A stretch of 27,056 nt of DNA from Deltaproteobacteria bacterium. Lineage in GTDB: Bacteria; Myxococcota_A; Polyangia; Polyangiales; Ga0077539. The notes under the pieces were generated by a model. The model was given only the letters and a program-made list of their open reading frames with translations, was not told where the DNA came from and did no database searches. This document shows, piece after piece, positions 1 through 19,197 of the stretch. Within the stretch, counting starts at the first letter, position 1. The number at the start of each line of letters is the position of its first letter. The stretch covers positions 1 to 27,056 of the forward strand of contig JAUXYJ010000103.1 of the NCBI GenBank assembly GCA_030694465.1, read 5' to 3'. The translations under genes were made by a program, and so were the position numbers.

Positions 1-213
1 GGGCGTGCGTGAGTAGGGCTCGATCACGCAGGGGCGCATGGCGATGCGGCCCAACAGCCCGCGCTCACGCAGGCCCTCGGCGTTATCGCGAGGCTCGGCG
101 ACGATGTCCAAGGCGAGAGAGACCAAGCTCACAGATTCTTCGAGGGTGACATCGCAGTGGGGCGCCAGCGTCGCGTCTGCGAGCCCCTTGGCGAAGAGGT
201 CGTGCCACTTCAT
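1..213 (-). CDS. Hypothetical protein, N-terminal part only; the gene runs off the 5' edge of the window
   Basis: Reverse-strand frame from ATG (complement of 211-213) reads MKWHDLFAKGLADATLAPHCDVTLEESVSLVSLALDIV... with high GC3 and no stop before position 1. The ORF track omits it because it has no in-window stop. An in-frame stop lies just upstream (complement around 262). Confidence 0.4.
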   Translation of the reverse strand, partial: MKWHDLFAKGLADATLAPHCDVTLEESVSLVSLALDIVAEPRDNAEGLRERGLLGRIAMRPCVIEPYSRTP

Positions 214-282: not shown

Positions 283-369
283 CATGGCGGGCTCCATGGC
301 GGCGGCCATGGCGGTGCACCCGTTGGCAGGCGCTCGGCCAACGTTGGCTGGCACTCGGCCAACGTTGGC
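283..369. promoter_or_regulatory. Phased repeat arrays in the divergent intergenic region: three CATGGCGG copies at a 12-bp period (283-314), then three CGTTGGC half-sites at a 21-bp period (321-369), two of them perfect 12-bp palindromes GCCAACGTTGGC at 337-348 and 358-369
   Basis: Read directly from the sequence. The arrays sit between divergent starts at 213 (minus) and 539 (plus). Perfect dyad symmetry at a two-helical-turn spacing is typical of an operator for a dimeric or tetrameric regulator. Confidence 0.5.
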
Positions 370-538: not shown

Positions 539-1519
539 ATGACCGACCCTTCGCCTTCAGAGCCCACAGCAGCCCCCGAGCCCGCAACGCCGCGCGTACC
601 CAAGCGCGTGGTCGCCTCACGCAGCGGAGCCGCCAACGCCAAGGCCGCCGCCAAAATCGGCGCCGCTGAGCGGGACTTCAAAAAGTACCTCCCGTACATC
701 GGCGTCGCGTCCACCATCGGAGTGCTCGCGCTGCTCGTGCGGACCCCAAGGTTTGCCTCGGCCGGCTGCCTCGCGATCGGCTGCGTGCTTGGCGCGCTCT
801 TGCTCTGGCTTGGGCACAGCTACCGCGTGTCGCTCCCCGCGGACGACAAGCTCCGATGGATGCTCACGCCCATCACCGCGATGATCTTGGCCGTCGCGTT
901 TGTGCCCTTCGCGCGGGTGGTGTTTCCGCCCCCACCGGTGGGCGTCGTGCAGCTCAGCGCCTCGGACGAGCATCACGAAATCCCTGTAAATTCGGCCACC
1001 AATCTCTGGATCGACGTGTCGGGTCGCCAATCCCCGACTGCCGTCGGACTCGCGGACTACACCCTCGCCCTCTCGCTCGACGCGCAGCGCCAGCGCGTCG
1101 CCGGGCGCCTGCGCGGAGAGCCCGGTGACCCTGTCCTGCACGAACGCAACACCCTCGCGATCCACGGCCCAGGCACCCTGCGCGTCGAGCTCCGTGGGCT
1201 CTCAAGCGCCATCGCCACGCCCATCACCGTGCAAGTGCACGGGCGCCTGGTCCCCACAATGCCGCTGCTCGTGGTGCTCGGCGCCCTGTGGATCCTCGCT
1301 GCGATGATCGACACTGCGCTCTACCGCCGCGGCGTCGAGCCCTCCTACGCTGCCGCGATGGGCATCCCGCTCATCGCCGTGGCCTACTACCAACTGCGCA
1401 CCATCACCGGCGAGAGCATGCCCACAGAGCTCGCTGGCGGCGCCCTCTTGGGTGCGATCTTGGGCGGCCTCGGCGGTGAAGTCCTCGCGCGTATCGGCCG
1501 CATGCTCGCCCCCAAGTGA
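539..1519 (+). CDS. Polytopic membrane protein of unknown function (three N-terminal TM helices, a central beta-rich extracytoplasmic segment, C-terminal TM helices)
   Basis: ATG at 539 inside the 446-1519 ORF. Hydrophobic helices include VASTIGVLALLV, CLAIGCVLGALLLWL and PLLVVLGALWILAAMI. GC3 is high. No family recognised. Confidence 0.6.
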   Translation: MTDPSPSEPTAAPEPATPRVPKRVVASRSGAANAKAAAKIGAAERDFKKYLPYIGVASTIGVLALLVRTPRFASAGCLAIGCVLGALLLWLGHSYRVSLPADDKLRWMLTPITAMILAVAFVPFARVVFPPPPVGVVQLSASDEHHEIPVNSATNLWIDVSGRQSPTAVGLADYTLALSLDAQRQRVAGRLRGEPGDPVLHERNTLAIHGPGTLRVELRGLSSAIATPITVQVHGRLVPTMPLLVVLGALWILAAMIDTALYRRGVEPSYAAAMGIPLIAVAYYQLRTITGESMPTELAGGALLGAILGGLGGEVLARIGRMLAPK

Positions 1520-3537: not shown

Positions 3538-4926
3538 CTACTCGCTCGGCTCGTCCTCGTCGTCACCGCTCCGCCGGATCCCCAGGGCGCGCATCTTTTT
3601 GTAAAAATGCGACCGCTCGAGCCCTAAATCACGTGCCGCGTGCGTGGCGTTTCCCTTGTGGTGATCGAGCGCGCGCTGGACGAAGTCTCGCTCGGCGCTC
3701 TCGGTCATTTCGCGCAGCGACAAGCCCGGTCGGTAATACCCATCGGCGCTCGCACCCGCAGAGCCTCCGGTGACCGCGCGCACGTCGTGCTCATCGATCA
3801 CGTCGTGGGTCGTGAGAATCACCAAGCGCTCGACGAGGTTCTTGAGCTCGCGCACGTTGCCCGCGAACGACTGCTTGGCCAACAAGGTCATGGCCGAGGG
3901 CTGGATGCTCTTGAGCGAGCGATCATTGGCCTCGCAGCTCGCGGGCAAAAACGCCGAGACCAGCAGCGGCACATCTTCGCGTCGCATCCGCAACGGCGGA
4001 ACGTGAATGTTCAGCACGTTGAGCCGATCGTACAAATCCGCGCGAAATCGCCCGGTACTCACGTCACTCACGAGGTCTCGATTGGTCGCCGCTACGATGC
4101 GCACATTCACCTTGTGGACCTCGTGCCCGCCCACGCGCTCAAGCTCGCCTTCTTGCAGCACCCGCAGGAGCTTGGCCTGCATCGCGGCGGGCATGTCTCC
4201 CACCTCGTCCAAGAACAGCGTGCCCCCGTGCGCGCGCTCGAATTTGCCCCGACGCAACCGCGCTGCGCCCGTAAAAGAGCCGGCCTCGTGGCCAAAGAGC
4301 TCGCTCTCGATGAGCTCTGCGGGGACGGCTGCGCAGTTGAGCTTCTCAAGCGGCCCCTGCGCGCGCTTAGAGCCCTCGTGAACCGCCCGCGCGACGAGCT
4401 CTTTGCCGGTGCCACGCTCGCCCGTGACCAGCACGGTGGCGTTGGCGTTGGCAGCGAGACGCACGCGCTCGCGCAGCTCGCGCATGGTGCTGCTGTCGCC
4501 CAAGAGCCCCGAGCCTACGCCGGTCAATCGCCTGAGCTTCTTGTTCTCGGCCGAGAGCCGCACGAGCTCGAGCGTGTTGGCGATCGTGAGCAAGAGCTTG
4601 TCGGTCGAGAGCGGCTTCTCAAGAAAGTCCTGCGCGCCCAGCCGCGTCGCTGACACCGCGGTCTCGATGGTGCCGTGCCCAGACATCACGATCACCGGGG
4701 TATCAATGCCCTGTGCACGCGCGCGCTCGAGCACCGCGAGGCCGTCTAAGCCCGGGAGCTGCACGTCCATCAAGACAAGGTCATGCGCACGCGAGCCCAT
4801 GCGATCAAGCGCGCTGGGCCCGTCGACCGCAGAGTCTACGTCGTAGCCCTCGACTTTGAGCGCACTGCGAATGGTACGAACGATATTCGGCTCGTCGTCC
4901 ACAACCAGAATGGATGCACGTCCCAC
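3538..4926 (-). CDS. Sigma-54-dependent transcriptional response regulator (NtrC/AtoC family): receiver, AAA+ sigma-54 activation domain and a Fis-type HTH
   Basis: Receiver ILVVDDEP...DLVLMDVQLPGLDG. Walker A GERGTGKE, the GAFTGA-type loop ESELFGHEAGSFTGA, and LFLDEVGDM. C-terminal HTH ATHAARDLGLERSHFYKKMRALGI. The ORF track extends to 4965 (GTG). GTG at 4926 is the more plausible start, six residues ahead of ILVVDD. Confidence 0.85.
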   Translation of the reverse strand: MGRASILVVDDEPNIVRTIRSALKVEGYDVDSAVDGPSALDRMGSRAHDLVLMDVQLPGLDGLAVLERARAQGIDTPVIVMSGHGTIETAVSATRLGAQDFLEKPLSTDKLLLTIANTLELVRLSAENKKLRRLTGVGSGLLGDSSTMRELRERVRLAANANATVLVTGERGTGKELVARAVHEGSKRAQGPLEKLNCAAVPAELIESELFGHEAGSFTGAARLRRGKFERAHGGTLFLDEVGDMPAAMQAKLLRVLQEGELERVGGHEVHKVNVRIVAATNRDLVSDVSTGRFRADLYDRLNVLNIHVPPLRMRREDVPLLVSAFLPASCEANDRSLKSIQPSAMTLLAKQSFAGNVRELKNLVERLVILTTHDVIDEHDVRAVTGGSAGASADGYYRPGLSLREMTESAERDFVQRALDHHKGNATHAARDLGLERSHFYKKMRALGIRRSGDDEDEPSE

Positions 4927-4996
4927 AAGCGTCAGTGTATGCGACAACGCCCGCTCGCCACGCACACTCTTTGCAACCGCTCACCCATTGTCCGCG

Positions 4997-7890: not shown

Positions 7891-7937
7891 CGCCGGTCAG
7901 GATGGCGTGGGGGGGGGACCGCCTCGGCTGACCGGCG
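7891..7937. terminator. Two-tier hairpin between convergent genes: 10-bp perfect stem CGCCGGTCAG/CTGACCGGCG enclosing an inner GGCG/CGCC stem and a G9 homopolymer
   Basis: Inverted repeat read directly. On the minus strand it is followed by a T-rich run (GTTTATCATTTCT). It sits in the 181-bp gap between the 7858 plus-strand stop and the 8040 minus-strand stop. Confidence 0.35.
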
Positions 7938-15654: not shown

Positions 15655-15728
15655 CGCGCGACAACGCGCAGGACCCAACGCAAGCGCGACAAGCGCGACA
15701 AGCGCGACAACCGCGATAACCGCGTATT
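15655..15728. repeat. Tandem 9-bp repeat array (unit GCGCGACAA): three perfect central copies flanked by degenerate copies (CGCGACAAC, CCAACGCAA, CCGCGATAA, CCGCGTATT)
   Basis: Read directly. It lies in the 88-bp spacer between the PG-binding gene stop and the B3/4 gene start. Confidence 0.6.
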
Positions 15729-16897: not shown

Positions 16898-19197
16898 TCG
16901 GTGTCCCAGGTCTCGTGCACAAAGGTAGGGAGCGCTACGGTGCGCACGGCAGCCTCGACACAAGCCCCAAGGGGGGTGTTGTGCAGGGCGGGACCAAAGA
17001 GCTCGACGCGCGCCACTTGGCCTGTCGAACCGGTAAACTGCACGGCAAAACGCGCCGTCATCGGCGCCGCGGGGTGACACCGAGCGCTCACACGGACCTG
17101 CATCGCGCGGCGAGCGTTTCCGCGCACGCGCCAATGCGGCGTCTGCTCGCCGTTGTGTCCGTCGACGCGCAAAAGGCCGTCTTCGGGCGACGGCGAAGCG
17201 TCTTCGGGCTCGACCGCAGGGCCTGCGTCTTCGGGCGCGCTGGGCGTGGGTTCGGGTAGCGCCACAGCAGCATCGGCGACCTCTGGCGTGGGCTGCGGCT
17301 CGGCGGCGTCTTGAGGCTCGGCGACCAAGGGAATTTGCAGGGCGTTTGCGTCTTCGCTGGCCTCGGAAGCGGGCTCCGTCACCGCGCCTGCGTCCTCGGT
17401 CAGCCCCGTGAGCGGGGGCGATCGCGGCGGATTGACCGAAGGGACCCCATTGAGCTTCGAGAACAAGAACGCGCCCCCGGCGATGCCGCCTACGAGCCCG
17501 ACGATCGCAGCCAAGACCACCACCATCGGACGCTTGGAGCCACGCGCGGCGTCCGGCGCTGCCCTCGCCGCAACGGGCACTGAGGGGCGCTTGGGCGCGA
17601 TGGGCATCGGCACCGGAATCCCCATGTCAAACAGTGGCGGCACCTCAATGTGCTCGCTGACGGCAGGGGACAACTCGACGCTGATCCCTGGCACCTCAAG
17701 GTCCATGGCGATGGCTGGAGCGTCGTCGTCCTCGGGATCGTGGCCCACTTCGAGCGCCGGGGGAGCGTCCGCCAGAGGGACCGGCCCCGGACTCTTAGAA
17801 GACCCAGAAGTGCTTGAAACTACAGGAAATTCTAAGATCTCATCTGTGACCTTCGGGTCTAGCGTGTCGAGGTCAATGTCAGTCAACTCAACCGAGTCAA
17901 CTGGGTCTTCGTCCTCGACGAGGTCAGCGAACAGCGCGGCGTCTGTCCGCTCGGTCTTCTCGGTCTCGAGAGGGCTGCTGGCCGCGATCGGGACGGACAG
18001 CACAGCGCTAGGAGGCCCGCTCATGGGCTCTAGCCCCAGCGACTCGGGCGCGATGCCCATGAGCGTCGATTTGCTCGCTCGCAAGGCCGGCCGAAGGGGC
18101 GGCATCGAGGGTGGGTGTCGTGCAGAGTCGGAGGGAGCCACTTCGGGAGCGGGAGCGTCGGCCGCAGCGACAGGCGCGACGCCCCTGAGAGTCGTGGTGG
18201 TCGAGACCTCTGGCGCCTCACTGGCGGACTTCGTCGCGCTCGCGAGGCTCGATGCGCTCGGGGATTTCGTTGCGCTCGCGAGGCTTGATGCGCTCGGGGA
18301 TTTCGTTGCGGAGGAGGGCAACGAGGGAGCGCGAACGGGCGATGGGATCGAGAGTTCGGGCACCGAAGGCGTGCGTGAAGAGGACTTAAGCCCCGAAATC
18401 GAAGGCGCCGCGGTGAGCGCTGCCGACAGCGCCTGGGCAAAGCTTAGACAGCTCGGAAACCGCGCCACGGGGACACTCGCCGTGGCACGCGCGAGGACAC
18501 GCGCGAGGGGCGTCGCTGCCGGGACGGGCGCGAGGAGCACTTCGGCCAATTGTCCAAGCGCGTAGCGGTCGGAGGCGGGCTGCGGCGAGCGGCCGGCGAC
18601 GTCTTCGGGTGCACGAAACGTCGCCTTGATTTGGGCCGCTTCGTGGACGTCTTCGACGCGCGCGGCAAGAAGAGCAGCAGCGAATCCCGCGTCAAGAATG
18701 CGGGGAGCGCGTGTTACGCGGTCGACGCGAATGGTGTCCAAGGACAGCAACAAGTGCACGATGGGCGGGCTGAGCGCGTGCATGGCGTCCATCGCTTCGC
18801 CCACCGCGCGGATGATCTCTAGCGCCTCTGCGCGAGGCAGCGAGCCCTCTTCGTCAAGCACCTCGCGCAAGGTGGGGCCATCCACCCACGAGGTCACAAT
18901 GACCGGAAATCCCATCTCGACGCCCGACGCGAGCAGCTTTGGGATGTGCGGAATACTGACCTTCGCGAGCCACTGCGAGCGTCGCGCGAACGCGTCGATG
19001 TACGCCGCGCTAGGCGCATCCGAGCGCAGCGTGGTGATGGAGACAATCTCGGTCTGGCGCTCGGTGTGATGACCGCGATAGGAGACCCAGGCTTCCGTCG
19101 CGTAGGCCTGCGCCTCTACGAAGTACTCACCCGCTACGACGTAGCCAGCGGGAAGGGTCCAGCTCGCATCCGAGTTCGTGACAGACATCGGCTGCAT
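16876..19197 (-). CDS. Membrane-anchored Ser/Thr protein kinase-like protein, probably a pseudokinase: N-terminal degenerate kinase domain, Ser/Ala/Pro low-complexity linker with a 12-aa tandem repeat, one TM helix, and a C-terminal extracytoplasmic Cys-containing domain
   Basis: The kinase-fold region has an APE motif (FRAPEDV) but lacks the G-loop and the VAIK Lys. It has HLLLSLDTIRV in place of HRDLKPEN and DAG in place of DFG. TM helix MVVVLAAIVGLVGGIAGGAFLF. The C-terminal domain is of unknown family. Confidence 0.7.
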   Translation of the reverse strand: MQPMSVTNSDASWTLPAGYVVAGEYFVEAQAYATEAWVSYRGHHTERQTEIVSITTLRSDAPSAAYIDAFARRSQWLAKVSIPHIPKLLASGVEMGFPVIVTSWVDGPTLREVLDEEGSLPRAEALEIIRAVGEAMDAMHALSPPIVHLLLSLDTIRVDRVTRAPRILDAGFAAALLAARVEDVHEAAQIKATFRAPEDVAGRSPQPASDRYALGQLAEVLLAPVPAATPLARVLARATASVPVARFPSCLSFAQALSAALTAAPSISGLKSSSRTPSVPELSIPSPVRAPSLPSSATKSPSASSLASATKSPSASSLASATKSASEAPEVSTTTTLRGVAPVAAADAPAPEVAPSDSARHPPSMPPLRPALRASKSTLMGIAPESLGLEPMSGPPSAVLSVPIAASSPLETEKTERTDAALFADLVEDEDPVDSVELTDIDLDTLDPKVTDEILEFPVVSSTSGSSKSPGPVPLADAPPALEVGHDPEDDDAPAIAMDLEVPGISVELSPAVSEHIEVPPLFDMGIPVPMPIAPKRPSVPVAARAAPDAARGSKRPMVVVLAAIVGLVGGIAGGAFLFSKLNGVPSVNPPRSPPLTGLTEDAGAVTEPASEASEDANALQIPLVAEPQDAAEPQPTPEVADAAVALPEPTPSAPEDAGPAVEPEDASPSPEDGLLRVDGHNGEQTPHWRVRGNARRAMQVRVSARCHPAAPMTARFAVQFTGSTGQVARVELFGPALHNTPLGACVEAAVRTVALPTFVHETWDTDYAVELR
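18229..18310. repeat. 36-bp tandem direct repeat, 2.3 copies with two mismatches, inside the pseudokinase linker; it encodes ATKSPSASSLAS twice
   Basis: TTCGT(C/T)GCGCTCGCGAGGCT(C/T)GATGCGCTCGGGGAT repeated. Read directly. Confidence 0.7.

Follow-up and report, generated by a model that had tools for sequence, protein, structure and literature searches.

A palindrome array between two divergent genes is one member of a repeat family dispersed in myxobacterial genomes and linked to an uncharacterised protein gene

The window analysed in the present study is a stretch of 27,056 nucleotides that begins at one end of a 313-kb contig in the source MAG ('Deltaproteobacteria bacterium'). Its first two genes diverge, and the starts that an earlier note on this DNA had assigned to them, 213 on the minus strand and 539 on the plus strand, both agree with the NCBI gene calls of that MAG. 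The minus-strand frame that begins at ATG 213 has an in-frame stop just upstream, and thus the region between the two starts is intergenic. Neither flanking gene gave a match in Pfam or NCBIfam, and no homologues of the leftward gene were found. The features of this end of the window are as follows.

1..213, minus strand: 5′ part of the leftward gene, 71 codons, truncated by the contig end, GC3 0.86
241→226, minus strand: σ54-type -24/-12 element TGGCACctgcgCTGCA, one mismatch, 13 nt before the leftward ATG
283..314, unstranded: CATGGCGG three times at a 12-bp period, a local tandem repeat
316..327, unstranded: degenerate first copy of the 12-mer, GCACCCGTTGGC, right half-site intact, three mismatches in the left half
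328-336: spacer AGGCGCTCG between the degenerate copy and the first perfect palindrome
337..348, unstranded: perfect palindrome GCCAACGTTGGC, copy 1, from the sequence and from shuffles
349..357, unstranded: 9-bp spacer TGGCACTCG between palindrome copies 1 and 2
358..369, unstranded: perfect palindrome GCCAACGTTGGC, copy 2, able to pair with copy 1
539..1519, plus strand: rightward gene, a 326-aa hypothetical protein with three homologue clusters only

The earlier note had called this DNA unusually ordered, and the repeats that it described are all present: three copies of CATGGCGG at an exact 12-bp period (283-290, 295-302 and 307-314), three of CGTTGGC at an exact 21-bp period (321-327, 342-348 and 363-369), two perfect 12-bp palindromes (337-348 and 358-369), and an extended direct repeat, the 16-bp CTCGGCCAACGTTGGC (333-348 and 354-369). 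The order is non-random. The exact palindrome GCCAACGTTGGC occurs twice in the window, as against 0.00 times in 100 dinucleotide-preserving shuffles, and CATGGCGG five times where 1.62 are expected, with five or more in 0 of 100 shuffles; Tandem Repeats Finder reports both arrays, one with a period of 12 and 2.7 copies, the other with a period of 21, 2.4 copies and 90% match. The degenerate copy GCACCCGTTGGC stands in exact 21-bp phase with both perfect palindromes, and degenerate copies also occur at the edges of the arrays at loci L053, L146 and L139. There is no further copy of GCCAACGTTGGC in the 27-kb window. As a conserved companion of the palindromes CATGGCGG was rejected, since it accompanies an array only in the window and lies beside none of the palindrome arrays at other loci; it is a local tandem repeat outside the conserved element, and it is unexplained.

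The window contains several further repeats. The 5′ region of the plus-strand gene has a perfect 10-nt inverted repeat, GCAAAGAGAT/ATCTCTTTGC, at 413-422 and 501-510 with its arms 78 nt apart, a weak hairpin of terminator type with a T-run after it (426-448), and two direct repeats, CTTTTTGCAC/CTCTTTGCAC at 442-451 and 503-512 and two copies of CACGCAGCCC at 462-471 and 486-495. Tandem repeats are found at 18226-18310, within a Ser/Thr-kinase-like ORF (36-bp period, 2.4 copies, 93% match), and in a coding region at 15681-15724, where the 9-bp unit CAAGCGCGA is present in 4.9 copies.

A scan of positions 1-700 for σ70 promoters gave nothing, and the most concrete promoter signal of the region is the σ54-type element TGGCACctgcgCTGCA. 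It is the sole match in the window with at most one mismatch, against a chance expectation of 0.82 per window, and its position 13 nt from the leftward ATG implies that the transcript has almost no leader. Measured from this element, the palindromes are 96-128 bp upstream, at the distance classical for a UAS. The window also encodes, at 3538-4965 and thus 3 kb away, an NtrC-type protein (response-regulator/σ54-activator/HTH_8), along with OmpR-type regulators; nothing ties these regulators to the motif. The presence of both a σ54-type element and an NtrC-type activator nearby made it attractive at first to see in the two dyads, which are spaced by two helical turns between divergent genes, an operator or upstream activating sequence dedicated to the divergent promoter, to which a regulator of the locus would bind cooperatively, for instance the NtrC-type protein acting on the σ54 promoter at 241→226. 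The NtrC sites of glnAp2 form just such a pair of upstream activating sequences for an enhancer-binding protein upstream of a σ54 promoter, and the window resembles that arrangement in having two dyads ~100-130 bp upstream of a -24/-12 element.

Comparison with other genomes argues against this dedicated-operator reading. The earlier note had proposed that conservation of the sites be sought in orthologous intergenic regions, and no such conservation was found: at the three loci that encode homologues of the rightward gene (L002-L004), the gene upstream is a co-directional LysR gene instead and GCCAA-NN-TTGGC is absent. Because the leftward gene lacks homologues and those of the rightward gene follow a LysR gene, an alignment of orthologous intergenic regions has nothing to draw on. 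The motif itself is found elsewhere. A scan of 185,579 species genomes for two copies of GCCAANNTTGGC separated by 0-30 nt returned at least 118 loci. Among the matches listed, the gap histogram has its top peak at a gap of 10 (24 pairs), with 11 pairs at a gap of 9 and a lesser peak of 14 pairs at a gap of 18. Exact CG-centred pairs with a 21- or 22-bp period account for 16 loci among these matches, 15 of them in Polyangiales, Polyangiaceae, Sandaracinaceae or 'Deltaproteobacteria' MAGs; in the same list several genomes have two to four such loci, and some arrays reach four to five tandem copies. Metagenomes scanned for the exact pair contributed 17 more loci, all with a gap of 10. Altogether, 380 kb of these loci hold 40 arrays of 2-5 copies each, and almost every copy that seems to be single is accompanied by a degenerate one 22 bp off. 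The spacers of the relatives are 9-10 bp long and variable in sequence, and the period is 22 bp in most of them, the 21 bp of the window being shared only by L028, L119 and L026. The array in the window is thus one member of a dispersed myxobacterial repeat family, GCCAA-NN-TTGGC in 2-5 copies with a 21-22-bp period, whose arrays come almost without exception from Polyangia (Myxococcota) assemblies. Several short-read contigs (L001, L127, L132, L137 and L138) start or end at an array or within about 100 bp of one, as is expected if the unit is present in multiple copies in the community; in L001, a 3.5-kb Logan contig of SRR13727538 on which the window's own gene lies, just 14 bp precede the first palindrome.

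The genes around these arrays were assigned at unique loci from GC3-based ORF calls, with the flanks read by eye. Eight arrays lie between divergent genes, six between convergent genes, 11 between co-directional genes and one, at L006, in frame inside a leuS-like ORF, the sole exception to their extragenic position. This spread is roughly that of random intergenic placement. The bias toward promoters that the earlier note had wished to see examined is therefore lacking in the relatives, which argues that the array does not serve the two genes flanking it as a dedicated operator; between convergent genes, moreover, no promoter is expected. A σ54-like site occurs within 300 bp of 2 of the 40 arrays, where about one would be expected by chance, and for this reason the σ54 enhancer idea, at first favoured, was dropped. 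Similarly, one match with at most one mismatch per window is itself about what chance would give, the association known from glnAp2 is not seen at other arrays, and the enhancer-binding proteins encoded near arrays, in the window and at L146, are only paralogues with 36% identity. With the paired motif present some 40 times in relatives and missing from the loci of the rightward-gene homologues, we regard a dedicated operator as very unlikely. The interpretation in the earlier note of two dyads bound by a dimer of dimers thus holds in one part, in that the arrangement is non-random and most likely accommodates a dimer per dyad at about two helical turns, and fails in the other, that it serves this promoter in particular. 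The array does not show this divergent promoter to be specially designed for regulation; local control of the leftward gene more likely rests with the σ54-type element, a promoter that the array could modulate.

The 12-mer is self-complementary, so that the two copies of GCCAACGTTGGC in the window can pair as a hairpin with a 12-14-bp stem. Its RNA fold has an energy of -41.7 kcal/mol and a z of -2.9, and the DNA fold a z of -3.5. A strong hairpin on both strands, together with the many arrays that lie just past stop codons or between convergent genes, might suggest that the element acts as RNA or DNA structure and has no protein partner, whether as a bidirectional terminator, as a transcript-stabilising stem-loop or as a product of replication slippage. 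In the window, however, the array is placed where two genes start divergently and no transcript end is expected, and it has no T-tract. Rfam gave sub-threshold microRNA noise only for positions 1-1000, and terminators do not need an identical 12-mer conserved across families. As such a structure would also leave the linkage to one protein family described below unexplained, we consider it extremely improbable that a hairpin is the whole of the matter.

The variation within the arrays is informative in this regard. CG, CA, CT, TA and TG are all seen as the central dinucleotide of the palindrome, and the centres within one array are often non-complementary (CG with CA, CG with TA), a pattern that fits recognition of half-sites in duplex DNA better than a requirement for a hairpin. 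The variants are genome-specific and common to the copies within a genome: DASXHD01 has the pair GCCAACTTTGGC/GCCAAAGTTGGC both in front of a gene of the linked family (L140) and at two dispersed loci (L018 and L069), and at L142 the odd pair GCCAACATTGGC/GCCGAAATTGGC stands at the gene and again, inverted, 2 kb off, with spacers that share 6 of 10 bases. At one orthologous site represented in three assemblies, the palindromes are identical at 24 of 24 positions and the spacer at 8 of 10, while the adjacent non-coding flank is unalignable; conservation of the palindromes next to so diverged a flank suggests selection. The scan pattern fixed the half-sites, and this in part builds in their conservation among the scanned arrays; the unbiased set is that of the gene-proximal arrays to which the protein led. 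The array in the window is real and belongs, almost certainly, to a conserved kind of DNA, either functional or selfish.

At L124, a metagenome contig, two arrays bracket one small gene. Searches by tblastn and HMM place genes of the same protein family next to arrays at L124 (on both sides), L136, L138, L053, L052, L131 and L135. Five family genes were also picked by homology alone, as an unbiased test, and four of the five are preceded by a GCCAA-NN-TTGGC pair whose gap is 9-10 bp and which lies 16-90 bp from the start codon; the fifth (L147), which looks frameshifted and has little upstream DNA, has no array. The array family is thus linked to a protein gene. No array was found beside the distant family members at L148 and L149 or beside the paralogue at L028, and the link between gene and array therefore holds for the closer subfamily. 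Upstream of the distant member at L149 there is an inverted repeat, GTCGCAAC-N5-GTTGGCGAC (~2270-2295), that keeps a GTTGGC half-site with a spacer and may be a diverged site. The 27-kb window contains no array-linked gene of the family. The family comprises 36 close clusters, and 345 clusters in 1.84 billion representatives; few of them carry taxonomic labels, which say Polyangiaceae, and a look-up of cluster names gave one 'Polyangiaceae' label.

The protein is ~230 aa long and has no match in Pfam, NCBIfam or PHROGs. Its AF2 model (pLDDT 88, pTM 0.68) has a Lys/Arg-rich N-terminal tail, followed by six helices that form one domain (residues 14-114) and by a small α/β domain at the C-terminus (125-215). 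Conservation is highest along R77-x-A79-x-R81-x-x-R84-V85, which places the invariant residues on one helix. The best structural matches of the helical domain are the DNA-binding domains of KorB, Spo0J and ParB, with modest scores. Foldseek found no significant match to the protein in the PDB, a PDB profile search returned summed TPR-repeat artefacts only, and hhalign detected no similarity to an approximate Spo0J sequence. Given the modest structural scores and the null results of Foldseek and hhalign, we infer DNA binding by the family protein rather than demonstrate it; such binding is probable. No conserved HUH/Y motif is present in the protein, and neither conserved neighbour genes nor a KorA or ParA partner were seen at the loci examined. 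The earlier note did not recognise the palindrome as the site of a characterised regulator, and indeed it matches no described regulator site; a full-text search of the literature for the motif returned unrelated eukaryotic papers only, and searches on REP or RAYT in myxobacteria gave nothing relevant. Both motif and protein family are new to the libraries and literature searched, while the principle is a familiar one.

Taken together, these observations lead us to think, on balance, that the arrays, a lineage-wide repeat family in Polyangia, are landing sites of this uncharacterised ~230-aa KorB/ParB-like protein. In such a model, one protein dimer would bind each 12-bp dyad through its GCCAA half-sites, leaving the two central bases free to vary, and a spacing of 21-22 bp would put neighbouring dimers on the same face of the DNA, where they might bind cooperatively or form higher-order assemblies. 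An array beside the protein's own gene would allow autoregulation, and the dispersed arrays, some near promoters and some far from them, would act like the OB sites of KorB. If the model is right, the cognate protein of the window would be encoded elsewhere in the genome. We infer both the dimer stoichiometry and any regulatory effect in the window.

A close precedent for such landing sites is KorB, the ParB-family global repressor of the IncP plasmid RK2, whose OB sites act both at promoters and far from them (PMC11790492). The system described here is, in contrast, chromosomal and restricted to Polyangia, its sites are tandem arrays of 21-22-bp period where OB sites are single, and no KorA or ParA partner is seen. 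Nor is there sequence-level similarity between KorB and the family protein, which has no detectable ParB/Srx CTPase N-domain: neither ParBc nor any other Pfam entry matches, and in the model a basic tail precedes the helical domain. The sopC centromere of F is an array bound by the ParB-type protein SopB, and the loci resemble it in that tandem arrays of short palindromes lie next to, up- or downstream of, the gene for a ParB-fold HTH protein. They differ from it in the many arrays per chromosome, the absence of a ParA neighbour, the much shorter period and the lack of evidence for partition.

REPINs, in association with RAYTs, provide a second point of comparison. REP and REPIN sequences are extragenic palindromic doublets, capable of forming hairpins and dispersed in both orientations (PMC3337134, PMC3116915), and RAYT genes are flanked by REPINs (PMC3337134). 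The arrays are like them in being extragenic, hairpin-capable doublets that occur in both orientations with related copies per genome, and in flanking a single gene. They differ in that the flanked gene does not encode a Y1/HUH transposase, in the unit, a perfect palindrome of 12 bp as opposed to an imperfect one of ~20-25 nt, in a core that is conserved across families and in an apparently low copy density. On such a view the 34-bp doublet could be a hairpin in single-stranded DNA spread by a transposase, RAYT-type Y1 or other, with the linked HTH-like gene as a passenger or a domesticated partner. Several observations fit such a selfish repeat. A single genome, JBILQT01, has units with near-identical spacers at separate loci and in either orientation (L030/L031 and L036/L045), and at L142 the whole unit is repeated in inverted orientation with a related spacer. 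The number of copies per array varies from 2 to 5, the hairpin is strong, and in the CT/AG variant the two copies stay reverse complements. The arrays on both sides of the associated gene at L124 recall RAYTs flanked by REPINs, and one array, as noted, is in frame inside the leuS-like ORF of L006. There the palindrome pair (7898-7931 of JACPFM010000091.1) is part of a leucyl-tRNA-synthetase-like reading frame (…ALPTLASSAANVGSS…), which suggests that a unit was inserted into coding DNA.

Two further findings bear on this transposase-spread reading. At L146 a Y1_Tnp gene of IS200/RAYT type (2084-2764), which encodes the HUH motif HVHLIVE, immediately precedes the array-linked gene and abuts the array; the palindrome pair forms its last codons, and an NtrC-type activator gene follows the linked gene. 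In addition, a second perfect 12-bp palindrome, GTAGCCGGCTAC, forms tandem arrays of the same 22-bp period directly beside GCCAACGTTGGC arrays at L125 (~760-860), L129 (~1580-1640) and L133 (~1090-1150). REP elements begin with GTAG, as does GTAGCCGGCTAC. The shared period hints that several protein/palindrome pairs may coexist.

Against a selfish repeat of this kind, a Y1 transposase gene was found at just 1 of ~45 loci (in pieces of 8-20 kb), and the associated protein lacks a conserved HUH/Y motif. REP sequences normally differ between species, whereas the core 12-mer is identical across families (Polyangiaceae and Sandaracinaceae) and only the spacers drift. Array density appears low: the 20.7 kb of L140 contain one array and most 8-kb blocks lack a second, yet three arrays share the 9.7-kb contig L139; among the matches listed, in pieces of 8-20 kb, there are 2-4 arrays per genome. 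Mismatched centres break the hairpin in several arrays, and the conservation of an orthologous site next to a diverged flank suggests selection. We therefore consider it unlikely, though less so than either a local operator or a hairpin alone, that the arrays are REPIN-like repeats spread by a transposase. This account and that of landing sites for a KorB/ParB-like protein are not mutually exclusive.

For the window, these studies mean that its divergent promoter is less special than first thought, and they yield a rule for annotation, namely that paired GCCAA-NN-TTGGC sites are not to be read as local operators. The 12-bp palindrome array and the unannotated family constitute a directly testable pair of protein and site. 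More broadly, the genomes of the Polyangia are very large and little studied, and few of their global DNA-binding proteins have been characterised. We tentatively raise the possibility that they carry an undescribed chromosomal system, in which an orphan KorB/ParB-like protein without a CTPase domain and tens of dispersed tandem arrays of its 12-bp palindromic site might act genome-wide as a silencer, an insulator or a nucleoid organiser, or in which the arrays might be a REPIN-like replicator with a non-transposase partner. Such a system could help to tell binding-site regulons from REPIN-like selfish repeats.
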